This document shows, piece by piece, positions 36,201 through 63,438 of a stretch of 64,000 bases of DNA. The position numbers and the translations under genes are program-made. Under the pieces are notes generated by a model, which was not told the origin of the DNA, made no database searches, and saw only the letters and a list, made by a program, of their open reading frames with translations. Position 1 is the stretch's first letter, and each line of letters opens with the position of its first letter. Origin of the DNA: Candidatus Harrisonbacteria bacterium (GTDB taxonomy: Bacteria; Patescibacteriota; Minisyncoccia; UBA6257; UBA11618); contig VGJO01000001.1 in NCBI GenBank assembly GCA_016867415.1, forward strand, positions 80,052 to 144,051. Reading direction: 5' to 3'.

Positions 36201-37385
36201 ATGAATAAAAAGATGAGTAAAAAAGTTTTATTAATAATTACGCAACCCACCTGGGGCGGCGCCCAACGCCATGTCTTTGATCTCGCTCTTGGCCTAAAAG
36301 AGGAAGGTTTCAAGGTGGTGGTAGGGACAGGGAAACCCAAGTCTTCTGCTAAAGAAGACTCTCTTCTCATCGAAAAGTTAAGAGAAAAAGAAATCACCAC
36401 TCAAATCTTTTCTCATCTCACCCGTCCTATTAGACCCCTTTCAGACATTCGCGCTATTTTCGAAATCTTTTCTTTCCTCCAAAAAAATAAAATAAATATT
36501 CTCCATCTCCATAGTTCGAAGGCCGGGGTGGTGGGAGCGGTGGCCGGCTTTCTTGCTCGCACCCCTCGCCGTCTTTTTACCGCTCACGGCTTAGTGCTGA
36601 ATGAGCCTCTTCCCCGGTATCTTCATGGTCTCTATTACATCCTTGAATGGATTAGCTTCCGCCTCTCGCATCACATCATTACCGTCTCTGATTTCGACCG
36701 TCATATTGCGCTAAAAAGTCGTCTCACTTCTCCTCTTAAAATCTCCACAATCTGGAACGGCATTGATCAAAAAGTATTTACCTCTTCACTCTTACCTAAA
36801 GAGACTGCTCGAAGAAAAATTCTCTCTCTCTTTCCCCACTCCATAGATGAAAAAAACTTCATTATCGGAACCATCGCTCATTTCTACAAGAATAAGGGCC
36901 TCTCTTTTTTAGTTTCCGCGGCCGAGATCGTGGTAAAAAGTTTCCCGCAAGCCCACTTTGTCATTATAGGGAGTGAAGGTTCGGAGCGCGCTTCTATTGA
37001 GCAAAAAATAAAAGAGTGCTCACTTGAAAAAAACATTCACTTGCTAGGTTTCATAGAAAATCCCGAATCATTATTAAATAGTTTTGACCTCTATGTTTCC
37101 TCATCTCTCAAAGAAGGCCTTCCATACTCCTTAATCTCAGCTCTTTCTGCGGAAGTACCAATAGTGGCTACTCAGGTTGGTGGCTGTTCTGAAATTATTA
37201 TTAATGAAGAAAATGGACTCCTTGTCCCTCCTGCCGACGCACCTGTTCTTGCTTCTGCTATTAGCCGCTTCCTAATCTCTCCTCACCTAAAAGAAAAAAC
37301 AAGAGAAAATAATAAAGTCCGCTCCTCGCTCTTCTCCCTTTTTGAAATGATTGATAAAACTATCGCAATCTACGATAATCGCTAG
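36201..37385 (+). CDS. glycosyltransferase family 4 (GT-B)
   Basis: EGLPYSLISALSAEVPIVATQVGGCSEII..ENGLLV (E-x7-E motif region). The ORF-track N-extension from 36093 is translated repeat sequence. Confidence 0.8.
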   Translation: MNKKMSKKVLLIITQPTWGGAQRHVFDLALGLKEEGFKVVVGTGKPKSSAKEDSLLIEKLREKEITTQIFSHLTRPIRPLSDIRAIFEIFSFLQKNKINILHLHSSKAGVVGAVAGFLARTPRRLFTAHGLVLNEPLPRYLHGLYYILEWISFRLSHHIITVSDFDRHIALKSRLTSPLKISTIWNGIDQKVFTSSLLPKETARRKILSLFPHSIDEKNFIIGTIAHFYKNKGLSFLVSAAEIVVKSFPQAHFVIIGSEGSERASIEQKIKECSLEKNIHLLGFIENPESLLNSFDLYVSSSLKEGLPYSLISALSAEVPIVATQVGGCSEIIINEENGLLVPPADAPVLASAISRFLISPHLKEKTRENNKVRSSLFSLFEMIDKTIAIYDNR

Positions 37386-37389
37386 AAAT

Positions 37390-39531
37390 ATGCTCTCTAA
37401 AACAATAAAAATTCTTCTATTTCTGACCGCTCTCACTCCTCTTATCTGGTCTTCGTATTTTATTTTTCCTTACGTTTCGGCAAAGATGTTCTTTTTTCGG
37501 GGACTTATCGAGATCGCTACTCTTCTCGCTCTTATTCAAAGCATAAGTGATGAAAATCTGCGCCAAAAAGCAAAAAAGATTTTTCGCAATCCACTCTTTC
37601 TTTCCCTGTTATCCTTTCTCATTATTAGCGGAATTGCGAGCATCTTTTCGGTAAATCCTTCCATTGCTTTTTTTGGTAATCTAGAACGTGGCGAGGGTTT
37701 TATTAGTCTGGTCCACTACCTCATCTTTTTCTTTCTCCTCTGCGTATTTTTCGAAGATCGTGATTTTCTTGGATTTCTTATTAGTTCCTTCTGGGTTGGC
37801 ATCGGTGTGACGTTTTTAGGCTTTTTTCAAAGATTAGGTCTGGATAACCTTCCGTTTGTCCCGCCGTATAAACCTGATTTTGATTCCACTTTAGGGAATA
37901 GAGCTTATGTAGCGGGTTATAGTCTTTTCCTTATCGGTTCTTCTCTTTTCTTATTTTTAGAAAAGAATACTCGCTCTTTCATGAGATATTGGTACGGCGG
38001 GGGAATTATTCTATTCTCTATTCTTCTCTTACTTACTAATAATAGAGGTTCTCTCGTCGCTCTTTTTGTATCTCTTCTTATTACTTTAGGTATTATTGCT
38101 TTTCATTCCTCTTCCCTTGTCGCCCGACGGGCGAAAATTGCTGGTATCTGTCTTGTTCTTTTTGGACTTTGTTTTTTTATTACTCGTTCTTTTCCGATAT
38201 GGCAGTACATTCCCGGACTTTCTCGTGTGGCTAATATTAGTCTCTCAGATGCTACGATGCGCACTCGCTACCTTTCTCTCATCTCTTCTCTCAATGCTTT
38301 TAAAGAGAAGCCATTATTAGGTTGGGGGAATGATCATTTCATCACTGCTTATAATAAATATTACGAACCAAGCTATGCCAGGTTTGAAAATTCCTGGTTT
38401 GATCGCGCTCATAATAAACTCGCCGAGATATTGGTAGAAACCGGCCTTATTGGTCTTCTCGCCTACTTAAGCATTTTTCTCTTTGTTTTTCTTTTTCTTC
38501 GGAAAGAAGGATTACGCAAAGAAACATTAATACTAGGAAGTATTTTTATTGCTTATTTTTTGCAAAATCTTTTTCTTTTTGATCACCCGACAAGTTATCT
38601 TCTTTTCTACTTCTTTCTTGCGTTTCTCATTATTCGAAGTAAAGAAGAAGTAAAAAATATTCCTTCCTCTCAACCTCTCTCATTCTCTTTTATTCCCCTT
38701 GGAGGCCTTGTAATATATCTCCCCCTTCTTCTCTACTGTTTTACATATCTTGAGGCAAAGCCGATCAAAGCTGCCTATGCCGCAAACATGCTTTCCCAAA
38801 AAGACTCTCTTTGGAATGAAAAGCCGGAGTTAATAAATATGGTAATAACTGGCTCTAGTTTTTCTAAAATAGATACGCATCGCTTTCTTATGGGCTTTAT
38901 AAATAGCCGAGGTTTGTTTATGAATAAAGCTTGGCAATCTAAACTTTTCCCATTTCTCCATTCATATGAGGGTTTAGTAATAGATAATAAGTACGACCCC
39001 CGAATAAATATTAGTCTCTCCGATGCCTATGAAGACCTGGGAGAAAAAGATCCCGGCTTTCTTGATAAAAAGCTCCAGGTTTTGGAATCAGCTCTCCCAC
39101 TTGCCCCGCGTCGCCAAGATCTTTTTTATGAGCTCGCTTTTGCTCATTCTCTAAAAAAAGAAAACGAAAAAGCGATAGAGATTGCCCGCTCCGCCATCGC
39201 ACTTGATCCCGAAGTCGCCCGCGCTCACTATGTGTTAAGCGCCATTCTTTATCTTGCGAAGGCTGATAAAGAAGAGAGTATCAGGGAGCTTGCACTTACT
39301 TTCGAGTACCCTGGCGCTTTCTTAAGTAGCCAGGACCAAGAAAATATAAAAAACATTCTCATCACCTACCTTGCTAATTCGGTAAAGAGTCGAGATGAAA
39401 AAGGTGTGACAAGCACGGCAACTCTCCTAAAAAAAGTCATCCCGGAAAAAATAGGAGAGTTCGATCAAATCATCGCTCTTGGCAAAGCTCATAACTGGTA
39501 CGCCCTGGAATATGGCCTTGATATCAAGTGA
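37390..39531 (+). CDS. Wzy_C (O-antigen ligase/PglL-like) polytopic membrane protein with C-terminal TPR-like domain (paralog of 29164-31035)
   Basis: YYEPSYARFENSWFDRAHNKLAEILVETGLIGLLAY motif, about 12 TM segments, C-terminal helical repeat region. Confidence 0.7.
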   Translation: MLSKTIKILLFLTALTPLIWSSYFIFPYVSAKMFFFRGLIEIATLLALIQSISDENLRQKAKKIFRNPLFLSLLSFLIISGIASIFSVNPSIAFFGNLERGEGFISLVHYLIFFFLLCVFFEDRDFLGFLISSFWVGIGVTFLGFFQRLGLDNLPFVPPYKPDFDSTLGNRAYVAGYSLFLIGSSLFLFLEKNTRSFMRYWYGGGIILFSILLLLTNNRGSLVALFVSLLITLGIIAFHSSSLVARRAKIAGICLVLFGLCFFITRSFPIWQYIPGLSRVANISLSDATMRTRYLSLISSLNAFKEKPLLGWGNDHFITAYNKYYEPSYARFENSWFDRAHNKLAEILVETGLIGLLAYLSIFLFVFLFLRKEGLRKETLILGSIFIAYFLQNLFLFDHPTSYLLFYFFLAFLIIRSKEEVKNIPSSQPLSFSFIPLGGLVIYLPLLLYCFTYLEAKPIKAAYAANMLSQKDSLWNEKPELINMVITGSSFSKIDTHRFLMGFINSRGLFMNKAWQSKLFPFLHSYEGLVIDNKYDPRINISLSDAYEDLGEKDPGFLDKKLQVLESALPLAPRRQDLFYELAFAHSLKKENEKAIEIARSAIALDPEVARAHYVLSAILYLAKADKEESIRELALTFEYPGAFLSSQDQENIKNILITYLANSVKSRDEKGVTSTATLLKKVIPEKIGEFDQIIALGKAHNWYALEYGLDIK

Positions 39532-39534
39532 GTT

Positions 39535-39608: not shown

Positions 39609-40754
39609 ATGGAATCTTCAGTTAAAAAAATACTAATTGCCTCAGGTATTTTTTCGCCTGAAATTGGAGGTCCCGCTACCTTCTCAAAAATCATTCTCAA
39701 TGAATATCAAAAAAGTGAGAAAATAGATCCAATTGTTCTCTCCTACTTCCTTCCTCATCATGCATCCCAAGATTCGCGTGTTTTTAGTGTTTCCAAATCT
39801 TTGCCAAAAGGCCTTCGCCATCTCATCTATTTTTACAAATGCTTATTTCTCTCTCGAAGGCGAAAACTAGTCCTTGCCCTCGATCCAGTCTCTGCCGGCT
39901 TACCCGCCCTTCTCTCCTCTTTCTTTATGGGAAATAAGTTTCTCGTTCGCATCGCCGGTGACTATGCCTGGGAAGAAGGCTCTCGTCGCTTTGGCGTGAC
40001 AGATACGCTCGATGATTTTCAAAAAAAATCCTATGGCCTTCGAGTCGAGTGGCTCCGCTCCGTCCAGAAATATGTGGCCAAGAAAGCTGAGAAAATAATC
40101 GTTCCCAGTGAGTATCTAAAAAAAATACTAGTGACCGGATGGGGGATAGGGCCGGAAAAAATCATCATAATCTACAACGCTGTTGATTTTCCTGATGCGC
40201 CCGTAGAAAAATCCCTTTCCGTTTCTCCTGCCTTCTCTCTTTTTTCTGCCGGTCGCCTTGTCTCCTGGAAGGGTTTCGACAGCTTATTAGATCTTATGCA
40301 TGAACTCCCCTCGACTATCACACTCGCGATCGCCGGCGATGGGCCGGAAGAACAATCTTTAAGAAAAAAAATAATTGATCTAGATCTTACCTCTCGGATC
40401 ACTCTCCTCGGCCGCCTAGAGAAAAAAGACTTAGTAAATAGATTAAAAGCCGCTGATCTCTTTATTTTGAATACTAAGTATGAAGGCTTTTCTCACCAAA
40501 TTCTCGAGAGTCTTGCCCTCGGCGTCCCGGTAATTACTACAAATATCGGTGGCAATCCCGAGCTTGTAAAAGAGGGTGAAAATGGTTTTCTCGTCGCGCC
40601 CGATGATATGCTTGGCTTTAAAAAAGCTATAGAAAAAATAAGCACTGATAAGTCTCTCTACGCTCACCTTAGCAAGAATGCTTTGCAAGTCCGCCACCTT
40701 TTCTCAAAAAATCGCCTCATTACTGATTTTGAAAATTTGATAAAAAACATATGA
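39609..40754 (+). CDS. glycosyltransferase family 4
   Basis: EGFSHQILESLALGVPVITTNIGGNPELVKEGENGFLV. Confidence 0.8.
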   Translation: MESSVKKILIASGIFSPEIGGPATFSKIILNEYQKSEKIDPIVLSYFLPHHASQDSRVFSVSKSLPKGLRHLIYFYKCLFLSRRRKLVLALDPVSAGLPALLSSFFMGNKFLVRIAGDYAWEEGSRRFGVTDTLDDFQKKSYGLRVEWLRSVQKYVAKKAEKIIVPSEYLKKILVTGWGIGPEKIIIIYNAVDFPDAPVEKSLSVSPAFSLFSAGRLVSWKGFDSLLDLMHELPSTITLAIAGDGPEEQSLRKKIIDLDLTSRITLLGRLEKKDLVNRLKAADLFILNTKYEGFSHQILESLALGVPVITTNIGGNPELVKEGENGFLVAPDDMLGFKKAIEKISTDKSLYAHLSKNALQVRHLFSKNRLITDFENLIKNI

Positions 40755-41890
40755 AAGTTCTAATGATATCAATTGACAAGGGGATTTTAGATCGAAATAC
40801 TCCAGCGGGAAAAAGAATGAAAGAATATTCCGAGCTTTTCGACGAGCTTGTGATTATTGTTTTTGCAAAAAAAGGAAAAGGGAGTGGTTACGAAAATGGC
40901 AGGCTAAAAGTTTTTTCTTCTGATTCTCTTTCTAAAGTTTTTTATTTCTGGGACGCTTGGAAAATAATCCGTCGCCTGCGAATAAATAAAGATTGGGTTA
41001 TCACCTCCCAAGACCCCTACGAGACCGGTCTCTTCGCGCTCCTTGTGAAGTGGTGGTATAAGGTTCCGCTTGAGATGCAGATCCACGTCGATATCTTCTC
41101 TCCGTATTTCAAACATTTGAGTTTTCGCAACCGATTTCGCGCCTGGCTTGCAAAGCAGACCCTTCCGTTTGCTACTCGCGTCCGCGCCGTCGCCTCTCGG
41201 GTCAAGCAATCAATTATCGATCAAAAGCTTCTCCTGCCAGAAAAAATCACCGTCATTCCCGTCCCGACTAATAACGAAGAGATACGAAAAAAATCCTCCG
41301 CCTTTTCCCTCAAAGAAAAATACCCAGGGTTCGCGCATTACTTTCTCATCGTCTCCCGCCTCGCTCCCGAAAAAAACATCCCGCTTGCGATTGAGGCCTT
41401 TGCCGAAGTCATCCAAAAATATCCCGAAGCCTTTCTTCTCATTGTTGGCAAAGGAAGTGAGGAGAATTCTTTAAAAAAGTTAGTTTTTCGCTTGAAATTG
41501 GAAAAAAACATTTGCTTTGAGTCCTGGACCTCTGATCCTTTTTCCTACATGAAGACCGCCGACATTTTCCTTCTCCCTTCCCTCTACGAAGGCTGGGGCC
41601 TCTCTGCCATTGAGTCTCTCGCCTGCGGCCTCCCTATCATTATGACCGACGTCGGCTGTGCTGGTGAGGTAGTGCGAGATGGCAAAAATGGCCTCATTGT
41701 TCCGGTGGCGGACAAAATAGCTCTCCAAAAAGCTATGGAAAAAGTAATAAAAGATTCCTCCCTCCTTTCCTCCCTCAAAGCCGGCACTCATGCCACTGAT
41801 TTTTCTCGTATAGAGAAGCCAGAGATTCTAAAAGCCCTGAAAGAAAATCTGGAGAAAACCGCCGCCTCTTTCCTCTTCCATAAATCATAA
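40751..41890 (+). CDS. glycosyltransferase family 4
   Basis: EGWGLSAIESLACGLPIIMTDVGCAGEVVRDGKNGLIV. 4-nt overlap with the upstream gene (operon). Confidence 0.8.
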   Translation: MKVLMISIDKGILDRNTPAGKRMKEYSELFDELVIIVFAKKGKGSGYENGRLKVFSSDSLSKVFYFWDAWKIIRRLRINKDWVITSQDPYETGLFALLVKWWYKVPLEMQIHVDIFSPYFKHLSFRNRFRAWLAKQTLPFATRVRAVASRVKQSIIDQKLLLPEKITVIPVPTNNEEIRKKSSAFSLKEKYPGFAHYFLIVSRLAPEKNIPLAIEAFAEVIQKYPEAFLLIVGKGSEENSLKKLVFRLKLEKNICFESWTSDPFSYMKTADIFLLPSLYEGWGLSAIESLACGLPIIMTDVGCAGEVVRDGKNGLIVPVADKIALQKAMEKVIKDSSLLSSLKAGTHATDFSRIEKPEILKALKENLEKTAASFLFHKS

Positions 41891-41912: not shown

Positions 41913-44021
41913 ATGCGCGTTCTCGTCTTTTCTACCGATGATTTTCTTCCTCCCGCTGGTGGCGCCGAGCTTGCTTTAGGTGAGATTATCCGCCATCTTC
42001 CCGAAGTTCAGTTTGAAGTCATCTCTGCCAAAATCCACCGAGGTCCTCGCCCCACAAATATCCCAAAAAACGTCACTATCCGTCACATTGGCTGGGGATT
42101 TTGGCCTCTCCTCGACAAACTTCTACTCGTTCTTTTAGGGCCCTCTATAGCCTATAAAAGCCATAAGAAAGCCCCTTTTGATCTAGTCTGGTCCATGATG
42201 GCCTCCTATAGTGCTTTTGCTGCCCGAATCTTCAAAAAGAAGGCTAAAACCCCCTATCTTCTCACCCTGCAGGAGGGAGATCCGATTACTCGGCCCCTAT
42301 ACCGCATTTTGAAGCGCTTAGGGCTCTTTGGACCGCTTTTTTCCGATGCCAACGCCCTCCAACCTATCTCTCATTTTCTCTCTCGCTGGGGTCATTTTAT
42401 GGGCTTTAAAGGGCCTGTAGAGGCTATCATTCCCAATGGCGTTGATACTGATCATTTTTCGAGAGAAATCTCCGCCGCCGAGCGGGAGAAGCACCGCTCC
42501 TCTTTTGGTTTTCCTCCTGATGCCCTCATTCTCATTTCCGTCTCCCGCTTTGTCGCCAAAAATGGCCTTGCGGACATCATTCGCGCTCTCCCTCTTCTTC
42601 CCGAAAAAGTTTGTCTTGTTCTCTGCGGTTTTGGTGATCTAGATCAATCACTCCGCGATCTTGTCGCGCGTCTAGATCTTGAGCATCGTGTTCACTTTTT
42701 TGGTTCTTGTTCTCACACTCATCTTCCCGCCGTCCTTTCCGCCACCGATATCTTCATTCGCCCGTCTTTGAGTGAAGGGCTAGGTAATTCTTTTCTCGAA
42801 GCCATGGCCTGCAGCCTGCCAGTAATTGGCACTAAAGTAGGTGGCATCCCGGATTTTCTTGAGGATGGAAAGACTGGTTTTTTTTGTCTTCCCGAAAATC
42901 CCGAAAGCATAAAAGACACAGTACTAAAAATAATAAACTCCAATCCTGCTCGTCTTACCGAAATAAAAAAATCCGCCAAAGATTTGGTTATCAAAAAATA
43001 CAATTGGCGCTTGATAAGCAGTGGGATGAAGAATCTTTTCGAAAAGACGCAAGCGATTACCCCTCTCTGTCTAGAAAAACCTCTCTTCATCCTCTCGCTC
43101 GACGTCGAGCTTGCCTGGGGTATGAAGGGTTCAAAAAGATTTTTCCACCAATACGAAAAAAAGCGGGAAGTAGTCGATAAGCTTCTACAGCTTTTTGAAA
43201 AGTACGACATCCCCGCCACCTGGGCGGTGGTTGGGCATCTCTTTCTTGATAGCTGCGCCCCCGTCTCGGGCGTGAAGCATCCAGAAATTATTCGACCAAA
43301 AAAAGAGGGTACGAATGACTGGTTTGAAATTGATCCCTGTACCTCTATTACCACTCACCCTTTTTGGTATGGCAAAGATATTGTGGGAAAAATCATTAAG
43401 TCAGAAAAGCAAGAGCTCGCCTGCCATACCTTCTCGCATGTATACATGGATTTCCCCTCTCTTACCAAAGACTGGTTTGAAAGTGAATTAGCGGAATGTC
43501 AGCGGCTTGCCAAAGATCATGGCCGATCTCTAACTTCTTTTATCTTTCCGCAAAACAAAATCCGTTTTGTAGATAGTCTCGCCCCCCATGGCTTCACCGC
43601 TTACCGCGCTCCTGATGACAATTGGTATAGTTCTTTAAGAGGACTCCTGAAGCGTATCGCTCATGTGATTGATGATTATTTGTGCTTGCCTGTTCGTTCC
43701 GTCCTCCCTTATAAAGACAATGATCTCATCGCCATCCCCGGCAGTTATTTCTACGTCCATAAAGTCGGCTGGGCGCGTTTTCTCCCCGTCTCCTTTCGAG
43801 TAAAAAAAGCCAAGTGGGGGATAGATGATGCAATAGAGACCGGTAAAATATTTCACCTCTGGACTCACCCTTTTAATCTCACGGATAAAGATGGTAAGCT
43901 CCTTGCCGGTCTCGAAGAAATCCTGCGCTACGTCGCCGAAAAAAGACGACAAGGAAAAATCTCTATTACCTCTATGAACAAAGTTAATAATTTTTTAAAA
44001 AATAATGAAAACTCTAAGTAG
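41913..44021 (+). CDS. bifunctional GT4 glycosyltransferase (N-terminal) / polysaccharide deacetylase, NodB-like (C-terminal) fusion
   Basis: N-terminal half: EGLGNSFLEAMACSLPVIGTKVGGIPDFLEDGKTGF. C-terminal half: LDVELAWG, ATWAVVGHLF, CHTFSH His motif of NodB-type deacetylases. Confidence 0.7.
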   Translation: MRVLVFSTDDFLPPAGGAELALGEIIRHLPEVQFEVISAKIHRGPRPTNIPKNVTIRHIGWGFWPLLDKLLLVLLGPSIAYKSHKKAPFDLVWSMMASYSAFAARIFKKKAKTPYLLTLQEGDPITRPLYRILKRLGLFGPLFSDANALQPISHFLSRWGHFMGFKGPVEAIIPNGVDTDHFSREISAAEREKHRSSFGFPPDALILISVSRFVAKNGLADIIRALPLLPEKVCLVLCGFGDLDQSLRDLVARLDLEHRVHFFGSCSHTHLPAVLSATDIFIRPSLSEGLGNSFLEAMACSLPVIGTKVGGIPDFLEDGKTGFFCLPENPESIKDTVLKIINSNPARLTEIKKSAKDLVIKKYNWRLISSGMKNLFEKTQAITPLCLEKPLFILSLDVELAWGMKGSKRFFHQYEKKREVVDKLLQLFEKYDIPATWAVVGHLFLDSCAPVSGVKHPEIIRPKKEGTNDWFEIDPCTSITTHPFWYGKDIVGKIIKSEKQELACHTFSHVYMDFPSLTKDWFESELAECQRLAKDHGRSLTSFIFPQNKIRFVDSLAPHGFTAYRAPDDNWYSSLRGLLKRIAHVIDDYLCLPVRSVLPYKDNDLIAIPGSYFYVHKVGWARFLPVSFRVKKAKWGIDDAIETGKIFHLWTHPFNLTDKDGKLLAGLEEILRYVAEKRRQGKISITSMNKVNNFLKNNENSK

Positions 44022-44025
44022 TGCA

Positions 44026-44148
44026 AAGCGAAGTAATTTTGGATGGAGTTTGCGATTTCTTTTCGAGGACAAGCCCGGAGCATACTGGGCTCAAGTATGT
44101 GAGGACTTACCGGAGAAAAAAATCGCAAAATTCGCCAAAAGTACGAGC
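44026..44148 (+). repeat. canonical copy of dispersed structured intergenic repeat, ending 11 nt before ATP-grasp gene ATG
   Basis: gcgaagtaattttggatggagtttgcgatttcttttcgaggacaagcccggagcatact gggctca agtatgtgaggacttaccggagaaaaaaatcgcaaaattcgccaaaagtacgagc. Confidence 0.65.
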
Positions 44149-44159
44149 ATAAATAATAT

Positions 44160-47715: not shown

Positions 47716-47747
47716 AAATATCATAAGTAGGTAATCGTCCTCAGTTC

Positions 47748-55610: not shown

Positions 55611-56573
55611 ATGAAAAGCCGGAATAAAAACGAGTTAGGTGATTTTATAAAAACCCAAATTAAAGGGCTTTCTTCTATTCCTAAAGAAAATAGCGAAGAG
55701 TTAATAAAGAATATTATCAATATTTTAGTAAAAAAAGAGGGGAAAGTGGTTATCTCTGGTATTGGTAAGTCGGGTTTCGTTGGAAAAAAAATAGCTTCTA
55801 CCTTTTTAAGTTTTGGACTTGAAGCTTCTTTTCTTCATCCAGTAGAAGCGTTTCATGGTGATTTAGGGATGGTAAGAGGGTGCGATACTTTGATCTGCGT
55901 ATCAAACAGTGGTGAAACAAAAGAATTACTTCGTTTGTTGAATAATATCCCTTCGGAGTGCGCGGTAGTCACTATTACCGGAAACAAAAAAAGTTCTTTG
56001 GCAGAGAAGAGTCAGTTTGTCCTTAGTTATAAAGTAGAAGATGAGGGTTCTCCTCATAATCTAGCTCCTATGAGTAGCGTAATCGCTGCTATGGCGGTAG
56101 GGGATTTTTTAGCCGGTTCATATGCGAAAGTAGTTAATTTTTCTAAAAAGAATTTCTCCAAATTTCATCCCAGCGGTTTTTTGAATCTTAAAGCGGCTTC
56201 TGTAGCGACGCTTATGAAATCAGGAAAGGATATTCCTAAAGTCAGCCCCTCTTCTTCTTTGAAGGAGCTTATTAGAGAAATGTCGGGAAAAAAGTTAGGC
56301 GTCACGCTTGTGCTAGAAAAAGGGGTTTTGAAAGGAATTATTACCGACGGTGATTTGCGAAGATTCTTTGAGCGGTCAGATTTTTCATTTTCTGCCAAAG
56401 CGGAAAAAATCATGACGAAGAATCCTGCTTCTATAGATAAAGAAAAAAGCTTAAAAGAAGCCCTGGATATTTTAGAAAAGAAAAAAATAACTACTCTACC
56501 GGTAATGGATAAAAAGAGGATAGTAGGAATTCTTCATCTTCACGATGTAATAAGTTATGGAAAGACTAACTAG
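55611..56573 (+). CDS. KpsF/GutQ-family sugar-phosphate isomerase (SIS domain + tandem CBS domains)
   Basis: VVISGIGKSGFVGKKIA SIS P-loop, CVSNSGETKE. C-terminal two CBS repeats. Confidence 0.75.
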   Translation: MKSRNKNELGDFIKTQIKGLSSIPKENSEELIKNIINILVKKEGKVVISGIGKSGFVGKKIASTFLSFGLEASFLHPVEAFHGDLGMVRGCDTLICVSNSGETKELLRLLNNIPSECAVVTITGNKKSSLAEKSQFVLSYKVEDEGSPHNLAPMSSVIAAMAVGDFLAGSYAKVVNFSKKNFSKFHPSGFLNLKAASVATLMKSGKDIPKVSPSSSLKELIREMSGKKLGVTLVLEKGVLKGIITDGDLRRFFERSDFSFSAKAEKIMTKNPASIDKEKSLKEALDILEKKKITTLPVMDKKRIVGILHLHDVISYGKTN

Positions 56574-57981
56574 AACTGAAGAAGCCAAGCTGATACTCAA
56601 GGAAATAAATCAAATCTTTTACTCAAAAAATTGGGAAAAAGATCTTTATTCCAAAAAAACAAAACACTCTCTTTGGGCTATAAATCAACAAATATTCTTC
56701 AATAAAATCCTTTCCGAGCTAGAAGGAAAGAAAGATAAGAAAGAAAAAATTTTTTTTTGGCTGGAAAACATAATATTTTTCTTTCTTTCTATTTCTTCTA
56801 ATTTCTTCTTCTCTTTTCTTTGCCGAATAAAACAAAAAGAAATAGGGGTCTACGCAATTTATAAAGGAAAAGATAAAGATTTTCGTCTTAAAAAGTTCTT
56901 TTCTTTCCTGGATAAAGAGCGAATAGAATACGGAAATATTGTATATTGCGGAACTAAATCTTTGGTATGGAGGGCAATCGCTTCAAATAGATTTCCTCTT
57001 TTTATAAAAACTCCGCTACCTTTTCCAAAAAGATGCAGCGGACCTCAATTAGAAAAAGAAGATCTTCAAAAGATAGAGAGTGAACAGTATAGAAAAATAA
57101 TCTCAAAGCTTTTTCCTATTTTTATTCGTCTTTCTCAAAAAAATAGGTTTGAAATAAAATTCCTTTCTTTTTTTCTGAAAGCAAGTGGCATTAAAAAAAT
57201 TTTCGCCATTGATGATTATCGTCATATGTTTCTTCTCACTGAAGCCGCTCATGAGAGTAGAGTGAATATCATCTTCATTCAACATGGTCGGTTTAATAAA
57301 TCACTGGGATGGCTTAACGACTTTATTGATTCATCCCTTTATCCTATCCCAGAAGAATATCTCTTAAAAAATGAATTTTGGAGAAAAGCGTTATTAAAAA
57401 ATAGTAATATATTTACTAACTATACAAATAGACTAAAGATATTTGGTTCCGCCTCTGAAGACATATCGTTTGAAAATAAAGAAAATAAAGAAAAAAAGGA
57501 GATTATTTCCATACTAATTCCGTATGAGACCGCCACTGATCATGAAGAAATTCGCTCGATAGTGGAAGAGATAAAAAAGGACAAAAAATATTATATTTTT
57601 TTCCGTCCTCGACCTGATCTTGATAAAGAGAAGCAGCTTAAAGATTATTCTTTGCCTTCTTCTACAAAAATAGTGGAAGACATTAATTCTTTTCTTAAAA
57701 ATGAATCCATTGATTTTATTTTAGGGACGTACACTACTCTCCTTTACGAATTCGCAGCGGTAAGTATTCCTTCTATAATAGTAGAAACCAAGAATACCGA
57801 CGCTTTTGATCTCTTTGAAGAAAAACTTGGTTTTCTAGTGAGGAAAGAAAATTGCACAGAAGAAATAGCAAAAAAACACTCTGACCTTTCCTGGTTTAAT
57901 AAAACAAAAGCGGCAGAGCTTGTAATAAAAGACGATTTTATTAAAAACTGCAAAGAAGTTTTAAAAAATGTGCGGAATTAA
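56557..57981 (+). CDS. hypothetical protein
   Basis: 474-aa ORF in operon context (overlaps neighbours). No confident motif. Confidence 0.45.
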   Translation: MERLTRTEEAKLILKEINQIFYSKNWEKDLYSKKTKHSLWAINQQIFFNKILSELEGKKDKKEKIFFWLENIIFFFLSISSNFFFSFLCRIKQKEIGVYAIYKGKDKDFRLKKFFSFLDKERIEYGNIVYCGTKSLVWRAIASNRFPLFIKTPLPFPKRCSGPQLEKEDLQKIESEQYRKIISKLFPIFIRLSQKNRFEIKFLSFFLKASGIKKIFAIDDYRHMFLLTEAAHESRVNIIFIQHGRFNKSLGWLNDFIDSSLYPIPEEYLLKNEFWRKALLKNSNIFTNYTNRLKIFGSASEDISFENKENKEKKEIISILIPYETATDHEEIRSIVEEIKKDKKYYIFFRPRPDLDKEKQLKDYSLPSSTKIVEDINSFLKNESIDFILGTYTTLLYEFAAVSIPSIIVETKNTDAFDLFEEKLGFLVRKENCTEEIAKKHSDLSWFNKTKAAELVIKDDFIKNCKEVLKNVRN

Positions 57982-59824
57982 CGGCTACAGTTTCAGCGAT
58001 AACGACCTTATCAGAAGAATGAATAAGGCGACAAAGCATCGAGGACCTGACGGAGAGGGGGTATTTGTAAATGAAGACATATCTTTTGGGCATAACCTTC
58101 TTTCTATTACTGACACGCCTTTGCATTCTCATCAGCCTTTTGTAAGCGAAGATAAAAAGAGAGTTCTAGTCTATAACGGAGAAATATATAACTACCGGAA
58201 TCTTCGGAGTGTCCTGGAAAAAAAATATTCTATAAATTTTAAAACTGACTGCGATACAGAAGTTCTTTTCTGGGGCATTTGCAAGGAAGGTATTAATTTT
58301 CTTTCTCGAGTAAATGGCATGTATGCTTTTGCTTTTTATAATGCTGAGGAGAAGAAAATAATTCTTTCTCGAGATCCTTCCGGCATCAAGCCTCTCTACT
58401 ATTACACATCAAAATCTCACCTATTTTTTTCCTCAGAGATCAAGGGATTATTTGCTTCTGAAGCAGAGAGAACCTTAGATTATGATGGATTTTCTCTTTA
58501 CTACTTTCTAGGATATATTCCCGGGGAAAGGACTTTGATAAAGAATATAAAAAAACTTACTCCCGGAGAGGTGATAGAGTACGATCTTATAAAAAATACC
58601 TTAGTAAAAAAGAAAGTCTTACTTCTAAATAAAAAAGAAACAAAAGAAAAAAGTGCTCCAAGTGAAATAAGGAATACGATTTCTGAAGCTGTCGAAAGAC
58701 ACTTAATAGGTCTTCGCCCTTTCGGTATGTATTTAAGTGGGGGATTAGATTCTTCTATTATTTTCTACGAGTTAGTAAAGAGTGGAAAAAAATGCATCAC
58801 CTACACCACTCGATTTGAGGCAAAAGATTATAAGTATAATGAAGACGCAAACATTGCCCAAAGATTTTCGGAGGATCTAGGGATAGAGCACAGAGAGCTC
58901 TATGTGACAGAAAAGGATTTTATAAGAGATTATGAAGAGTCCATCTCAACCATTGAGGAACCGCGTTACAATCCTTCTATTGGAGCATATTTTGCTCTCG
59001 CTCGCCTTGCCGCCAAAGAATCAACTGTGATCGTAAATGGTAGTGGGGGAGATGAGCTTTTTTTCGGTTATCCCAAGTACATGGAATCAAGAAAGATCTC
59101 TGATAAACTTTCGAAATATGGTAATAACCTGGCTCAAATACTTTTTCTCTCTCATTTTATTAAGAGCGGATTTATTAAAAATATTCCTGATTTTTTTAAT
59201 TTTCTCCAACTAAACAAACCTCTCGACCGCTGGGTCTATCTTAATAGAATCAACTCCACACCTTTTAAAAATGGATTTCATTCACAAAGCTTAAAAACAG
59301 TCCGCGATCTCCTTATGAAGGAGCTTCCTTTATTTTCTTCTGATGATACTGAAAACAATATCGCTATCCTTGATAGGATTTTCTGGCTAGCAAACGAAGA
59401 ATTTATCAGAACTGATAAAATAACCATGCATTTTGGCATGGAAGGACGATTCCCATTGCTAGATAAGGAAGTAGTGGACTTAGCGTACAATATTCCAAGT
59501 AGACAAAAACTTGTAAATGGTAATCTTAAGGCGCTCCTAAAAGAAAGCTACAAGGACAAACTCCCCGACTACATTATAAACAAGAAAAAGACCGGCTGGA
59601 CCGCACCCGTAGCAGAGTGGATGGAAAAACCCTCATTCTCTTCTTTCATAAAAGAAGTTTCCACTCCTTCCTTTTATAAGGAAATGAATCCGTTAATGCA
59701 AAAAACAATAGAAAGTAATTATATGGAGAAAAGAGGCTCATGGAGTACGGTTCACTTAAAAAAGATTATGCCTCTCATCGCTTTTAAAATCTGGGCAAAA
59801 AACTTCAACATCACCCTTCCCTAA
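57968..59824 (+). CDS. asparagine synthetase family amidotransferase (second paralog)
   Basis: MCGINGY (Cys2), YLSGGLDSS PP-loop. Confidence 0.85.
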   Translation: MCGINGYSFSDNDLIRRMNKATKHRGPDGEGVFVNEDISFGHNLLSITDTPLHSHQPFVSEDKKRVLVYNGEIYNYRNLRSVLEKKYSINFKTDCDTEVLFWGICKEGINFLSRVNGMYAFAFYNAEEKKIILSRDPSGIKPLYYYTSKSHLFFSSEIKGLFASEAERTLDYDGFSLYYFLGYIPGERTLIKNIKKLTPGEVIEYDLIKNTLVKKKVLLLNKKETKEKSAPSEIRNTISEAVERHLIGLRPFGMYLSGGLDSSIIFYELVKSGKKCITYTTRFEAKDYKYNEDANIAQRFSEDLGIEHRELYVTEKDFIRDYEESISTIEEPRYNPSIGAYFALARLAAKESTVIVNGSGGDELFFGYPKYMESRKISDKLSKYGNNLAQILFLSHFIKSGFIKNIPDFFNFLQLNKPLDRWVYLNRINSTPFKNGFHSQSLKTVRDLLMKELPLFSSDDTENNIAILDRIFWLANEEFIRTDKITMHFGMEGRFPLLDKEVVDLAYNIPSRQKLVNGNLKALLKESYKDKLPDYIINKKKTGWTAPVAEWMEKPSFSSFIKEVSTPSFYKEMNPLMQKTIESNYMEKRGSWSTVHLKKIMPLIAFKIWAKNFNITLP

Positions 59825-59839
59825 AATAAAGAAGATAGC

Positions 59840-60469
59840 ATGAATCAAAACCGAGGTATTTTTGATGGGATTCTTATCGAGAAAAGCCTTCTTGAACTTA
59901 AAGAGCTTTGGCAAAAGCAAGTAACGCAACTTGTTCAAGAAGAAAAAAACATAACTTCTCTTCCTGATAAGCTCCATGTTCAATTAACTAATTATGTAAG
60001 TCAAAAAACCTATGAAGAATATAGATCTCGTGCTGATGTTGCGTGTGCAGATTTGGTGATTGTTACTAAGAGAGATGACGGTCACTGGGGCGTACTCTTA
60101 AGTAAACGTGGATCCGGAAAGTCTTTTGCTAGAAGTTGGTGGATATATGGAGGATCTATCCCTTCGTATTCCTCAATTCCTGATTTTATTGCCAAGCGAA
60201 GTGAAGAAGAATCCGGAGTAAAGGCTACTCCTGTCCTCCTTCTCGGCGTCTATCGGACCTGCGCCCCTGATTTTGTAGGCTCTTCAGTCAACCTTTGCTA
60301 TCTCGGAATCGCTTCCTGGAGCGAAGTCGAGAGAGTAGCAGGTGTTGATAAGGATCATGATTGCATTGGATGTTTCACTGCAGGCGATATTGAGGAATTG
60401 AAGCGAAATGAGGAGGTTCATTGGTACCCTCTTCACGTTGCTTCTCGTGCGCTTGAGATCGTTTCTTAA
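59840..60469 (+). CDS. hypothetical protein (weak Nudix-like box)
   Basis: IPDFIAKRSEEESGV loosely resembles RExxEExG. Otherwise unknown. Confidence 0.4.
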   Translation: MNQNRGIFDGILIEKSLLELKELWQKQVTQLVQEEKNITSLPDKLHVQLTNYVSQKTYEEYRSRADVACADLVIVTKRDDGHWGVLLSKRGSGKSFARSWWIYGGSIPSYSSIPDFIAKRSEEESGVKATPVLLLGVYRTCAPDFVGSSVNLCYLGIASWSEVERVAGVDKDHDCIGCFTAGDIEELKRNEEVHWYPLHVASRALEIVS

Positions 60470-60500
60470 TCCTCATTTCGAAGAAAAAAGGTCCTTAACT

Positions 60501-60527
60501 AGGAGGCGATGTCCGCCTCCTTTTTTT
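60501..60527 (+). terminator. intrinsic terminator
   Basis: Stem aggaggcg/cgcctcct, 5-nt loop, T7. Confidence 0.75.
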
Positions 60528-60589
60528 ATAGAAATATTTGAAAAAAAGGCAAAATTACCTATAATTAGCTTTGTTTAAAGAAAGTAGTC

Positions 60590-61690
60590 ATGCGGAAATT
60601 AGAGCGAAAAACAAAAGAAAAAAATCCTCCTTCTCAAAAAATCCTCCTCATTATTGGCGGGGCTGGTTTCATTGGAATTAATGCCGCTCGTCATTTTTTA
60701 ATGAAAAAAAACTGGTCGGTGATTATTTTTGATAACCTTTCAAGAAAAGGTTCGGATCTTAACCTCGCTCAATTAAAAAAGGATTTCCCCAAAGCTATTC
60801 ACTTCGTAAAAGGAGATATCGTAAGAGATATAACTGCGCTCAAACGTGAAGTAAATAAAAGTGATGCAGTGATTCACCTTGCCGCTCAAGTAGCGGTTAC
60901 TACCTCTGTTACCGATCCTAGAACTGATTTTGAGATCAATGCCCTTGGTACTTTCAATGTTCTAGAAGCGATCCGATTAAGCAAAAAGAAACCGTCTCTT
61001 ATTTATTCCTCTACTAACAAAGTATATGGCGGACTTGAAGATCTATCTGTAAAAGAATTAAAAAATCGGTACGAATTTTCCTCAAAAGAGTTCCGAGAGC
61101 AAGGTGTCTCGGAAGAGCGAAATCTAGATTTTCATTCCCCGTATGGCTGCAGTAAAGGGGCGGCTGATCAGTATGTGATTGATTATAGTCGGATCTATGG
61201 CTTAAAAACCGTGGTTTTTCGCCAGTCCTGCATCTATGGCCGCCATCAGTTTGGAGTTGAAGACCAAGGTTGGGTTGCTTGGTTTATGATTGCCTGCTTA
61301 GTTGGTCGCCCCATTACTATTTACGGAAATGGGAAACAAATTCGTGATATTTTATTTGTTGATGACCTAGTTGATCTCTATTCCCTAGCTCTTTCAAACA
61401 TCGAGAAAGTATCCGGCCGAGCCTACAACATTGGCGCTGGACCTAAACATACGATTTCTCTCATTGAGCTTTTGAGTTTTTTCAAAGAAAAATTTGGATT
61501 TGATCCAAAGCTTTCCCATGCTGCCATTCGTCCCGGTGATCAACCTATTTTTGTTTGTGATATTAAAAAGATTAAAAAAGATCTTGGCTGGGAGCCAAAG
61601 ACTAATATCAATGAAGGTCTTCACTGTCTGCGGGATTGGCTAGAAGATAATAAGCAAGTATTAACGAAGTTTTTCGGGAAGAATAATTAA
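60590..61690 (+). CDS. NAD-dependent epimerase/dehydratase (extended SDR; CDP-paratose 2-epimerase / UDP-sugar epimerase-like)
   Basis: GGAGFIGINAA (GxxGxxG), YGCSKGAADQY (YxxxK). Confidence 0.8.
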   Translation: MRKLERKTKEKNPPSQKILLIIGGAGFIGINAARHFLMKKNWSVIIFDNLSRKGSDLNLAQLKKDFPKAIHFVKGDIVRDITALKREVNKSDAVIHLAAQVAVTTSVTDPRTDFEINALGTFNVLEAIRLSKKKPSLIYSSTNKVYGGLEDLSVKELKNRYEFSSKEFREQGVSEERNLDFHSPYGCSKGAADQYVIDYSRIYGLKTVVFRQSCIYGRHQFGVEDQGWVAWFMIACLVGRPITIYGNGKQIRDILFVDDLVDLYSLALSNIEKVSGRAYNIGAGPKHTISLIELLSFFKEKFGFDPKLSHAAIRPGDQPIFVCDIKKIKKDLGWEPKTNINEGLHCLRDWLEDNKQVLTKFFGKNN

Positions 61691-61702
61691 TTTCAGCTTT
61701 TC

Positions 61703-62809
61703 TTACCCTTTCGCTACCTTTTTGTAGAGTTCTAAAAACTCCTGAGTGATAATAGACCAATCGTGCGCTTTTGCATAAGCGAAACCCGCTTCTCCCATAT
61801 CTTTTCGTAATTGTTCGTCATCAAGAAGAGCCTCTATTGCTCCCGCTGTTCCGATAACATCGCTTTCTTTTACTAAAAGAGCGGTTTTTCTAACTATAAT
61901 AGCATCCTTTACCCCCCCAGAGTCAGAGGCAATAATAGGCTTCTTGCAAGCCGCAGCTTCTAAGTAGACTATTCCAAAGCCTTCAAAGTTCCAGTTCCCT
62001 AAAACGGGAGTATGAACATAAATATCGCATTCATGAAACTTCTCCGCTACTCTGTCACTATTCACTTCTCCCGCAAAGATGACATTTTCAGTTATCTTTT
62101 CTTCTTTAGTTATTTCCTCAAGTTTTCCTCGTAATTCGCCGGAGCCGACTAATATATAAAGGAAGTCGTTACGTTTCTTCTTTAATAGTCCCAGAGCCCT
62201 AAGAACAATATCCTGACCTTTTCGCGCTTTAAGGCCTCCTACAGTCATAAGAACCTTTTTGTCTCCATATTCTTTTTTTCGGGGAGGGGGAGTCATCTGA
62301 AACTTTTCAAAATCGAGTCCATTGTGAATGACTTGTATAGGAGTCTTGGTTGGGGAAAACTTTTGGATATGATCCCGGGTAAATACGCTTGGCGCCGTTA
62401 TCATGCTTGCGGTATTATAAGCCCAATTAAGGAAATATTTTTCCGGAAACATAAAAAGTGGTTTGATCGCGTATGTTCCCTGAGTCCCTATGATGAGCGA
62501 CTTTTTATATTTTTTTGCGAGCTTTGCGGCTATAAGAGCGTAGGGAAACTCAAAAAAAGAATGAATAAGATCATAACCGCTCGCATCAAAATCAAAAAAG
62601 AGATATTGAAGAATCTTTTTTGATTTCAGATCAAAAATATACTCCGGTAAAATCTCTTTTACTTCAAAGTTGACTTCTTTTTTATTTTTTTGAGGAGGTA
62701 CAAGGAGAGTAATTTCGTGATGTTTACTTACCTCTTTGGTTAGCTCCCAAGTTATTTGGCCATAGCCATCATTCGTACCAAAAACCGAGGAAAAACAGAG
62801 AATTTTCAT
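61703..62809 (-). CDS. glycosyltransferase family 4
   Basis: EGFGIVYLEAAACKKPIIASDSGGVKDAI. Confidence 0.8.
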   Translation of the reverse strand: MKILCFSSVFGTNDGYGQITWELTKEVSKHHEITLLVPPQKNKKEVNFEVKEILPEYIFDLKSKKILQYLFFDFDASGYDLIHSFFEFPYALIAAKLAKKYKKSLIIGTQGTYAIKPLFMFPEKYFLNWAYNTASMITAPSVFTRDHIQKFSPTKTPIQVIHNGLDFEKFQMTPPPRKKEYGDKKVLMTVGGLKARKGQDIVLRALGLLKKKRNDFLYILVGSGELRGKLEEITKEEKITENVIFAGEVNSDRVAEKFHECDIYVHTPVLGNWNFEGFGIVYLEAAACKKPIIASDSGGVKDAIIVRKTALLVKESDVIGTAGAIEALLDDEQLRKDMGEAGFAYAKAHDWSIITQEFLELYKKVAKG

Positions 62810-63438
62810 ATTTGTATCACAAATTGGTTATTTCTTTTATAGGTTTGAAGATGATGATTTTGTGCAAATTCATCAACAGCTTGTTTTACCTCTGGAAGAT
62901 GATAATCATCTCCCGCAAGGACACCACCTTTCTTCATTTTTGAGTAGAAATTTTCCAAATCTTTTTTCACTTGAAAATAACTATGGTCCCCATCAATATA
63001 GATAAAATCAAAAAAACCTTCGTAAAATTGAGAGACTGCTTCATCTGATTTTTTTCTTATGACGTGAACTATATTTTTATCTATCTCCTTTCGTAAGGCG
63101 CGCAACACGAAAGAATATCTATTATCTTGATTATCTTGGTTGTATTTTTCTTTTCCTCCTGGGATTTCTAGCCATGGATCTATTAAATAAAGTTGCTGAG
63201 GTTTAGAAATTCGGATAATTCTTTTAGAAAATAAGCCATTATAAACACCTATTTCTGCACAAACTCCATTTTTTCTAATGCTTTTTAAAAGAAAATCTCT
63301 CGGTTCAGGGAGATGATTTTCAATGCTTTTATAAAGATTTTTTAAAAAAGGTTTTAAGAGTTTTCCAAAGGGATTTGTATTGGCAAAAACTTTAAGGTCA
63401 TTCTTTAGTTTGTAGTCATTTTTATAAAATTTAGCCAT
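62806..63438 (-). CDS. class I SAM-dependent methyltransferase (Methyltransf_24/TylF-like)
   Basis: GVCAEIGVYNGLFS motif I, FIYIDGDHSY. Confidence 0.65.
   Translation of the reverse strand: MAKFYKNDYKLKNDLKVFANTNPFGKLLKPFLKNLYKSIENHLPEPRDFLLKSIRKNGVCAEIGVYNGLFSKRIIRISKPQQLYLIDPWLEIPGGKEKYNQDNQDNRYSFVLRALRKEIDKNIVHVIRKKSDEAVSQFYEGFFDFIYIDGDHSYFQVKKDLENFYSKMKKGGVLAGDDYHLPEVKQAVDEFAQNHHLQTYKRNNQFVIQI

Follow-up and report, generated by a model that had tools for sequence, protein, structure and literature searches.

Clusters of the Wzx/Wzy type for O-antigen, capsule and exopolysaccharide (EPS), including the Gram-positive cps and eps clusters, combine a Bac_transf priming transferase with many glycosyltransferases (GT) of families 4 and 2, one or more MOP flippases and a multi-transmembrane Wzy_C protein. 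All of these are present in a ~33-kb surface-glycan biosynthesis island that runs from ~36.2 to 68.8 kb of a 64,000-nucleotide (nt) stretch of a Candidatus Harrisonbacteria genome (contig VGJO01000001.1, positions 80,052 to 144,051; hereafter the window) and its continuation on an overlapping contig. The bacterium belongs to the Candidate Phyla Radiation (CPR, or Patescibacteria), and the island is real and no artefact; in architecture it varies an already described scheme, that of the Wzx/Wzy type. Sugar-nucleotide modifying enzymes, AsnB amidotransferases and a low-GC mosaic are further points of likeness, whereas a chain-length regulator, a tyrosine-kinase module, Wza and a LytR-CpsA-Psr (LCP) ligase are missing, the Wzy_C protein carries C-terminal TPRs and has a nearby paralogue, and the host is a minimal-genome CPR bacterium.

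Three other described systems bear on the locus. S-layer glycan (slg) loci and those for general protein O-glycosylation (Geobacillus WsaB, Neisseria PglL, Tannerella) share lipid-linked assembly genes and a Wzy_C transferase with it, and a large secreted Ser/Thr-rich surface protein, a candidate acceptor, adjoins it too. Here, by contrast, no ABC-transporter route is present, and in a related Parcubacteria locus (L041) no surface-protein gene is seen with Wzy_C-TPR. From the pathway to CMP-Kdo (Kdo being 3-deoxy-D-manno-octulosonic acid) and its transferases WaaA (GT30), KpsC/KpsS (GT107) and WbbB (GT99), the locus has KpsF and KdsB; unlike the transferases of lipopolysaccharide (LPS) and capsule, its candidate belongs to no curated family and is unaccompanied by lipid A or kps export genes. 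As a working analogy only, NDST and the 3-O-sulfotransferases of heparan sulfate are related to a sulfotransferase of the locus whose next gene encodes a deacetylase of carbohydrate esterase family 4 (CE4); here, the two activities reside on small individual bacterial proteins of the cytoplasm. Kdo is a sugar familiar above all from the LPS of Gram-negative bacteria, whereas neither an outer membrane nor LPS is expected in Patescibacteria. What stands out in the island is a set of Kdo genes linked to a GT-B family without curation and to a GT8 family specific to CPR. Taken as a whole, we consider it probable that this mosaic island encodes a Wzx/Wzy-like, polyprenol-linked pathway to a surface glycan that is decorated and has Kdo among its sugars.

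Open reading frames were listed over 34-64 kb, and each long one was searched against Pfam and NCBIfam. The same sequence is found on contigs of public assemblies. One of these, L030, agrees with the end of the window over 4,397 bases (0 mismatches) and carries on for a further 6 kb (virtual position up to 70011), giving ~70 kb of readable sequence. About 5 kb of the locus lies on this extension, in the order PhyH, KdsB, methyltransferase, second Wzx and Bac_transf primer; DsbA and glutaredoxin genes follow, which places the end of the island at ~68.8 kb. The PhyH-family 2-oxoglutarate (2OG)/Fe(II) oxygenase (311 aa, assigned by Pfam) begins in the window (63510-64000, + strand, is its 5' part) and is completed on L030. 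KdsB, the CMP-Kdo synthetase, reaches 239 bits against TIGR00466 (cut-off 155), the MOP-family flippase Wzx2 has 473 aa, and the 447-aa priming phosphoglycosyltransferase, ~3.5 kb past the window end, reaches 359 bits against TIGR03025 (cut-off 295). KpsF, KdsB, Bac_transf, both AsnB proteins and Wzy_C all score above curated cut-offs.

A preliminary description of the region, based on its open reading frames, had presented a single ~27-kb unit with an unusual enzyme mix. Its catalogue held up under the Pfam and NCBIfam searches, which contradict none of the family assignments: six GT4 genes, a DPM1-like GT2, a Wzx-like flippase, two NodB-type deacetylases (one fused to a GT4), two AsnB proteins, a sulfotransferase, an ATP-grasp ligase, a PHP hydrolase (with sub-threshold matches), a KpsF-like SIS+CBS isomerase, two S-adenosylmethionine (SAM) methyltransferases and an SDR-type epimerase/dehydratase are all found, with the details given below. 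The boundaries did not survive, given the ~5 kb on L030 and the mosaic structure, and neither did the unusual mix, since GT4 blocks with AsnB, KdsB, sulfotransferase, 2OG oxygenases, TylF-type methyltransferases, Wzx and Wzy_C-TPR recur in other Patescibacteria. Two or three oxygenases had also been proposed: a weak 2OG match at 51830-52651 and the PhyH gene from 63510, past the proposed end, bear this out in part, whereas the remaining unassigned genes, 54715-55590 and 56557-57981, have a GT8 fold and a GT-B fold, respectively, and neither is an oxygenase. Absent from that description were these two genes, the Wzy_C-TPR protein (37390-39531), the Kdo link through KpsF and KdsB, and the priming transferase beyond the window.

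The Kdo module is centred on the gene for a KpsF/KdsD-type arabinose-5-phosphate isomerase with one SIS and two CBS domains (55611-56573, +; TIGR00393 256 bits, cut-off 204). Its end overlaps the start of the GT-B gene (56557-57981, +), and the pair is divergent from the genes for the GT8-fold enzyme (54715-55590, -) and the flippase Wzx1 (53466-54722, -; Polysacc_synt 60 bits, cut-off 28); a like arrangement occurs in loci L042 and L035. The 474-aa GT-B protein, deposited as a hypothetical protein of a Candidatus Harrisonbacteria metagenome-assembled genome (MAG), represents an uncurated family of ~480-aa enzymes. Its sequence is matched by nothing in Pfam, NCBIfam or the PDB, and it falls in none of the known Kdo transferase families (GT30 WaaA, GT99, GT107). 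Its structure model (pLDDT 91) has a GT-B fold with two Rossmann-like domains, which rules out both an oxygenase and a membrane polymerase. An exhaustive HMMER search returned 334 representatives of the family, where a word-index search had matched the query only. The family has motifs of its own (IDDxR, FQHG, PYE, FKxRPD and GxYSTxLYE), and three members match the Glyco_transf_4 Pfam model.

What ties this family to Kdo is its genomic context, examined for the window and eight other members. The best match, P0002 (L035, 1485-3587), is a natural fusion of the GT-B domain to a KdsB that is 45% identical to the KdsB of this genome. Locus L035 is also colinear with 51.8-60 kb of the window, gene for gene (GT8 57%, KpsF 44%, 2OG oxygenase 36%, methyltransferase 45% and AsnB2 44% identical, plus Wzx), and is itself low in GC (0.34). 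A metagenome contig (L044, 1-6745; Logan SRR22388005) carries KpsF, a methyltransferase and GT8 on one side and GT-B, KdsB, KdsA and a TylF-type methyltransferase on the other; its KdsA and KdsB (equivalog models) and KpsF (subfamily model) all exceed curated cut-offs, and its GT8 and GT-B proteins are 57% and 26% identical to those of the window, so that a nearly complete Kdo pathway accompanies both little-known transferases. KpsF lies directly upstream of the GT-B gene in L038 and L043, and in L042, from a Patescibacteria MAG, GT-B and KpsF are divergent from GT8. Locus L040 unites GT8, KdsB, GT-B, GT4d, AsnB1, a GT9 (5732-6877) and a sulfotransferase, while the Parcubacteria locus L041 has Wzy_C-TPR, Wzx, GT-B, GT8 and a GT9 (15389-16537). 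The KdsB fusion, the KdsB-KdsA operon and the adjacency to KpsF make a strong case, by guilt by association, for an enzyme that works with CMP-Kdo, and we predict that 56557-57981 encodes a CMP-Kdo-dependent glycosyltransferase. Pfam scans of the locus revealed no other Kdo transferase candidate (GT30, GT99, GT107 or Capsule_synth).

The GT8 protein has a GT-A fold of the retaining type with a DxD motif (invariant D97-P98-D99) and resembles LgtC and glycogenin, a likeness that makes it an unlikely Kdo transferase itself. More than 1,684 homologues were found; the best 120 are 51-59% identical, and among these every one with a named organism comes from Patescibacteria or Parcubacteria. The combination of KpsF, GT-B and GT8, with KdsB and KdsA in some loci, appears to be a conserved CPR feature. 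A Saccharibacteria MAG adds a Kdo8P synthase (L005, 5378-6196; TIGR01362 366 bits, cut-off 314) ~4 kb upstream of a GT4/AsnB block. In L042, GmhA-like and RfaE-domain-II-like heptose genes (both just below cut-off) and a transaldolase adjoin the core (10914-12747); together with the GT9 genes (heptosyltransferase family) of L040 and L041 they are a hint that CPR bacteria handle heptose in addition to Kdo. We tentatively extend this to the group: Patescibacteria may commonly make a surface glycan containing Kdo, in some lineages also heptose, a sugar chemistry of the kind found in the LPS inner core, by means of a new GT-B family of Kdo transferases and a CPR-specific GT8, and the glycan would here also be N-sulfated, amidated and methylated. 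We regard this general statement as appreciably less secure than the reading of the island itself.

AsnB2 (57968-59824, +; TIGR01536 360 bits, cut-off 267) travels with the Kdo module, its L035 orthologue being 44% identical, which suggests, as a hypothesis, that it amidates a carboxylate group, perhaps the one on Kdo. The module is preceded by the first gene of the low-GC island, a putative 2OG/Fe(II) oxygenase (51830-52651, +; 2OG-FeII_Oxy_3 E 1e-3, a weak match) with a GC content at third codon positions (GC3) of 0.25; homologues in L035 and L039 are 34-39% identical and match the same model equally weakly. A KdoO-type Kdo hydroxylase was considered for this gene and for PhyH and set aside as speculation, no Kdo-hydroxylase family being among the Pfam matches. 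Between the putative oxygenase and Wzx1 lies a class I SAM methyltransferase (52673-53458, +; Methyltransf_23/11), 45% identical to its orthologue in the L035 module. Orthologues of Wzx1 adjoin the module in L035, L039, L041 and L042.

From these family memberships, which are observed, we infer the steps of a pathway. The Bac_transf phosphoglycosyltransferase would prime a polyprenyl phosphate carrier, and the six GT4, the GT8-fold and the GT-B-fold enzymes would elongate the lipid-linked oligosaccharide on the cytoplasmic face. KpsF would supply arabinose-5-phosphate and KdsB would form CMP-Kdo, with a Kdo8P synthase and a phosphatase from elsewhere in the genome, and Kdo would be transferred by the predicted GT-B transferase. 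Tailoring in the cytoplasm may comprise de-N-acetylation by two CE4 domains, sulfation by the NDST/3-OST-like enzyme encoded beside one of them, formation of carboxylate amides by two AsnB proteins and one ATP-grasp ligase, methylation by the four methyltransferases of the full locus, and hydroxylation by the 2OG and PhyH oxygenases. All tailoring enzymes are free of signal peptides and transmembrane segments, so these modifications most likely precede flipping. Two Wzx flippases would export the units, the Wzy_C+TPR membrane protein would polymerise them or ligate them to an acceptor, and an ArnC-like GT2 could provide a polyprenyl-phosphate monosaccharide for side decoration outside the cytoplasm. 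The proposal of a heavily tailored polysaccharide or protein glycan in the preliminary description stands at the level of gene content, while each decoration (N-deacetylation, amidation, methylation, sulfation, amino-acid ligation) is predicted from family membership.

Several observations weigh against this reading. The GT-B fold of 56557-57981 is generic: in comparisons of the model with known folds, the scores of UDP-GlcNAc 2-epimerases and of TagF/TarL are as high as that of WaaA, and the epimerases match no worse than transferases do. One GT-B member, L037, alone among those examined, sits in a polysaccharide locus that has no Kdo genes across the 17.5 kb read. KdsA and KdsC were not found in 70 kb (tblastn with CPR KdsA; Pfam, no DAHP_synth_1 match), and to this extent Kdo synthesis in this organism is deduced. 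The same 70 kb holds neither a UDP-sugar dehydrogenase, which would furnish uronic acids for AsnB and ATP-grasp, nor genes for the synthesis of 3'-phosphoadenosine-5'-phosphosulfate (PAPS). The Wzy_C domain is common to polymerases, WaaL ligases and protein O-oligosaccharyltransferases (O-OTases), which sequence cannot separate. No Pfam family for a chain-length regulator (PCP/Wzz, CpsC/D), outer export (Wza) or an LCP ligase was present on the scanned 1-64 kb open reading frames or the L030 genes. Finally, the presence of two flippases, together with the break in composition, might indicate that the locus makes several products.

This last point leads to the strongest alternative, in which two or three pathways lie side by side: a native GT4/AsnB glycan with Wzx2 and Bac_transf, a horizontally acquired Kdo module with Wzx1, and a GT2 route to a side decoration through a polyprenyl-phosphate sugar. 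The island is indeed a mosaic of a CPR-shared GT4/AsnB block, a repeat-bracketed four-gene cassette and a low-GC 13-kb island that holds the Kdo module. Seven housekeeping genes were sampled for GC3: six have values of 0.44-0.51, and one, for a solute-binding protein, has 0.365. GC3 is 0.35-0.52 across the 36-52 kb block, drops to 0.21-0.35 from 51830 to ~65.2 kb, and is back at 0.46-0.50 for the last methyltransferase, for Wzx2 and for the primer. Besides the two flippases, this sharp fall over 51.8-65.2 kb, the self-contained nature of the low-GC module with its own Wzx in L035, the presence of the GT4 block without that module in L004-L009, and a terminator followed by a promoter-like site at 60.5 kb all speak for separate pathways. 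Against them stand the single priming transferase in 70 kb and locus L040, where the union of GT4d and AsnB1 with GT8, KdsB and the GT-B gene argues for functional coupling. We regard separate pathways as possible, if on the unlikely side.

The block shared among CPR consists of GT4b, GT4c, the GT4 half of a fusion protein, GT4d and AsnB1, kept in similar order in loci of Magasanikbacteria, Saccharibacteria, Liptonbacteria and Sungiibacteriota; its orthologues occur in five other CPR loci. It is preceded by GT4a (36201-37385, +; Glycos_transf_1 E 5e-34), for which gene callers chose a start at 36093 inside a repeat, the ATG at 36201 being a better fit to the domain. GT4b (39609-40754, +; Pfam E 1e-37) is 38-42% identical to orthologues in Magasanikbacteria and Saccharibacteria loci, and GT4c (40751-41890, +; Pfam E 8e-39) has orthologues of 35-42% identity in L004, L005, L007 and L008 and of 33% in L009. 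The fusion protein (41913-44021, +) joins a GT4 to a C-terminal CE4/NodB-type deacetylase (Polysacc_deac_1 27.8 bits, cut-off 23.1) with the motifs LDVE and HTFSH. Its N-terminal half is 28-47% identical to proteins of six CPR loci (L004-L009), the fusion itself being seen at this locus and in none of those six, and its nearest genome matches are from the same four lineages. GT4d (47871-48929, -; Pfam E 8e-17) is 28-34% identical to orthologues in L004, L005, L009 and L040, and AsnB1 (48938-50770, +; TIGR01536 446 bits, cut-off 267) is 44-46% identical to orthologues that adjoin the GT4 block in L005 and L040. The two AsnB proteins are 37% identical to one another. After AsnB1 comes the ArnC/GtrB/DPM1-like GT2, a putative polyprenyl-phosphate glycosyltransferase (50823-51764, +; Glycos_transf_2 E 5e-32; ArnC 172 bits, under the cut-off) with two C-terminal hydrophobic helices.

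The four-gene cassette lies within this block. It starts with a PRK12767-like ATP-grasp ligase (44160-45320, +; ATPgrasp_Ter 35.8 bits, cut-off 29.1; NCBIfam E 1e-18; PDB 2pn1) and a PHP-type metal-dependent hydrolase (45308-46096, +; CehA/McbA 62 bits, under the cut-off of 80; PDB 2anu E 9e-6). A role for the latter as a phosphatase of 3'-phosphoadenosine-5'-phosphate is a guess; a CpsB/Wzh tyrosine phosphatase was rejected, as the protein is without a partner kinase or polysaccharide co-polymerase (PCP). The sulfotransferase (46101-46958, +; Sulfotransfer_1 E 4e-23; PDB 3rnl, 1zrh, 1nst and 8ccy) is closest, among solved structures, to the 3-O-sulfotransferases of heparan sulfate and to the sulfotransferase domain of NDST; it is cytoplasmic, with neither transmembrane helix nor signal peptide. 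It is followed by a cytoplasmic NodB/CE4 deacetylase (47020-47715, +; Polysacc_deac_1 E 6e-24; no transmembrane helix) with an intact TFDD...HTASH metal site. By analogy with NDST, this neighbourhood suggests deacetylate-then-sulfate chemistry.

The final step of the pathway is where a second alternative applies, namely that the locus serves chiefly S-layer-glycan-type protein O-glycosylation, with Wzy_C+TPR as a PglL/WsaB-like O-OTase that transfers the glycan en bloc onto a 1145-aa surface protein. The O-OTases PglL, PilO and WsaB carry a Wzy_C domain. The protein in question (37390-39531, +; PF04932 68.5 bits, cut-off 31.7) has 12 hydrophobic helices and TPRs at residues 544-650. A paralogue (29164-31035, -) is 27% identical to it over 361 residues (E 4e-30), has about 10 hydrophobic helices and a C-terminal soluble domain and no Pfam match below E 0.05, and is a candidate second polymerase or ligase. 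Between the two lies the gene for the secreted surface protein (32427-35864, +; PG_binding_1 E 0.0035, a weak match), which has a signal-peptide-like N-terminus, a TPTPTP linker, 24% Ser+Thr and no Cys, and is a candidate glycan acceptor. This flanking by two Wzy_C-type paralogues, the composition of the protein and the missing chain-length regulator favour O-glycosylation. Conversely, a similar 727-aa Wzy_C-TPR protein adjoins Wzx in the Parcubacteria locus L041, where no large surface protein is called in ~21 kb (10 kb either side of GT8); the ambiguity of the domain applies equally to an OTase, and the sole PDB match of the window protein is a weak one to the ligase WaaL (7tpg). We also know of no glycosylation sequon for the CPR group. 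We judge O-glycosylation as the chief function unlikely, and hold to a Wzx/Wzy-like pathway whose final enzyme may be a polymerase or a ligase.

A third alternative concerns 56557-57981, which might be a TagF/TarL-like phosphotransferase for a teichoic-acid-like polymer or a 2-epimerase-like protein, with KpsF and KdsB serving another enzyme. The QHG motif conserved in the family, which we take to resemble the catalytic His region of TagF-type enzymes, fits this view. The KdsB fusion and the KdsB-KdsA operon indicate CMP-Kdo, not CDP-alditol; the matches of three family members to Glyco_transf_4 and the want of any alternative Kdo transferase candidate in the locus likewise favour a Kdo transferase, and we find the phosphotransferase or epimerase quite improbable. 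That this is an ordinary Gram-negative O-antigen or group-2 capsule locus binned into a CPR genome by mistake, as the frequency of KpsF, KdsB, Wzx, Wzy_C and AsnB in such loci might suggest, can be dismissed almost entirely, for the locus is contiguous with housekeeping genes typical of CPR and monoderms (RNase J, RNase Y), the same hairpin repeat is found within it and on either side, the best 120 GT8 homologues (51-59% identical) are, where their source is named, all from Patescibacteria, and Pfam scans of the window and L030 reveal no KpsMT, KpsCS, KpsDE, WaaA, lipid A, Wzz or Wza genes. Two further known systems were rejected. A group-2 (kps) capsule would bring an ABC transporter, Capsule_synth or Poly_export families and KpsMT/CS/DE, none of which is present. 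The XrtA/PEP-CTERM EPS system was considered on account of the co-occurrence of AsnB, deacetylase and GT4; TIGR03108 scores are 406 and 294 bits against a cut-off of 817, TIGR03088 scores 97-120 bits against 409, and there is no exosortase.

The remaining genes of the low-GC island follow AsnB2. A 209-aa protein (59840-60469, +) has a weak, sub-cut-off NUDIX-like match (E 0.007) and no NCBIfam match. The SDR-type NDP-sugar epimerase/dehydratase (60590-61690, +) matches GDP_Man_Dehyd and Epimerase at E 1e-46 to 1e-48 and reaches no NCBIfam equivalog cut-off. GT4e (61703-62809, -; Glycos_transf_1 E 3e-37) and a Methyltransf_24/TylF-type, presumptive sugar O-methyltransferase (62806-63438, -; PF13578 61 bits, cut-off 26; TylF 27.6 bits) complete it up to PhyH. 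On the other side, upstream of the surface-protein gene, 31119-31964 (+) may encode a DeoR-type HTH regulator, with a weak PF08220 match on the called 272-aa product and no NCBIfam match. Flanking genes include IleRS, a class-I Trp/Tyr-type tRNA synthetase, RNase J, RNase Y, FtsK, IscS and ClpC, housekeeping neighbours that mark the locus as chromosomal. Four tRNA genes (4587-4669, 11942-12012, 14838-14909 and 14923-14993) are the sole Rfam matches of the window, and a tandem array at 14191-14325 with 9- and 12-nt units (CTGCTGGTT...) is probably a low-complexity coding repeat.

A family of hairpin repeats runs through the region. These ~125-nt imperfect palindromes number 12 across 70 kb by nhmmer, all intergenic and all on the + strand: 7034-7157, 9325-9491, 11107-11232, 15702-15800, 22126-22250, 24059-24166, 24603-24724, 28980-29159, 36022-36195, 44026-44150 and 47747-47870 in the window and 69601-69724 on L030, with none between 47.9 and 69.6 kb. 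The three copies that had been noted in the glycan locus (36022, 44026 and 47747) are therefore real members of a genome-wide family, and their supposed role of punctuating operon boundaries falls away. The 44026 copy (125 nt; nhmmer E 1e-35; minimum free energy (MFE) -43.8 kcal/mol, z -5.6) and the near-identical 47747 copy (E 7e-36; MFE -47.9 kcal/mol, z -6.3), the latter 100% identical over a 59-nt segment of family D2, bracket exactly the ATP-grasp/PHP/sulfotransferase/NodB cassette in direct orientation, an arrangement through which recombination could add or remove the cassette. At 44055, within the first of these copies, two independent short-read contigs break off. The 36022-36195 copy (E 3.7e-13) ends 5 nt before the GT4a ATG and has a ~45-nt tip insert; inserts of 45-50 nt at the hairpin tip are common to the 36022, 9325 and 28980 copies.

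Seven copies were folded, and the five best-preserved of them fold far better than shuffled sequences (z -3 to -6.3); the two degenerate ones, 11108 and 24060, show no advantage over shuffles, and z is -0.5 for a trimmed segment of the insert-bearing 36022 copy. Compensatory changes affect 14 of the 31 stem pairs. Eight copies end 4-11 nt upstream of a start codon, without an obvious Shine-Dalgarno sequence. The family has no Rfam or phage match, and a metagenome scan with a two-anchor exact pattern, which matches the window three times, found nothing. Its dispersed intergenic imperfect palindromes, fixed-site inserts in some copies and compensatory stem recall ERIC- and MITE-like repeats; unlike those, all 12 copies here are co-oriented, eight lie near start codons, and no transposase link was seen. 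Directly after the copy downstream of RNase Y lies a 26-nt near-perfect palindrome (11233-11285; 96% complementary, 1-nt loop); bordered by A/T runs, it probably acts as a terminator in both directions.

The three small hairpin repeats also reported for the locus could not be recovered as a family; only two clear terminator hairpins are present. The first (35904-35931), 3' of the surface-protein gene, is bidirectional, with 12-nt perfect arms and T/A runs on both sides. The second (60501-60521, +) resembles a strong intrinsic terminator (8-bp stem, 6 GC pairs, T7 run) and is followed by a promoter-like site at 60538-60565 (11/12 match). Overall, sigma-70 promoter-like sites in the locus are not commoner than in shuffles, and terminator-like sites number 17 against 17.2 in shuffles over 35.8-50 kb and 19 against 11.8 (sd 3.7), a modest excess, over 50-64 kb. 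With counts so near those of shuffles, operon boundaries rest on these two hairpins.

CPR bacteria are ultra-small, mostly uncultured epibionts, and the surface with which they contact their hosts is central to their biology. Literature searches on CPR surface glycans, O-antigen ligase and Kdo, kdsA or kdsB in CPR returned nothing pertinent, which is weak evidence of novelty, and a 2024 perspective on the group makes no mention of glycans, polysaccharides or S-layers. In a genome that we take to be ~1 Mb, a typical CPR figure, a 33-kb island occupies ~3%, which argues that the glycan is important to the cell. Should the Kdo prediction prove wrong, the locus would still be a well-annotated CPR surface-glycan island. 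If it is right, the GT-B family would be a candidate new family of Kdo transferases for glycoenzymology, and the conserved set of KpsF, GT-B and GT8, with KdsB and KdsA, makes a testable prediction for these organisms: that Kdo is present on the CPR cell surface.

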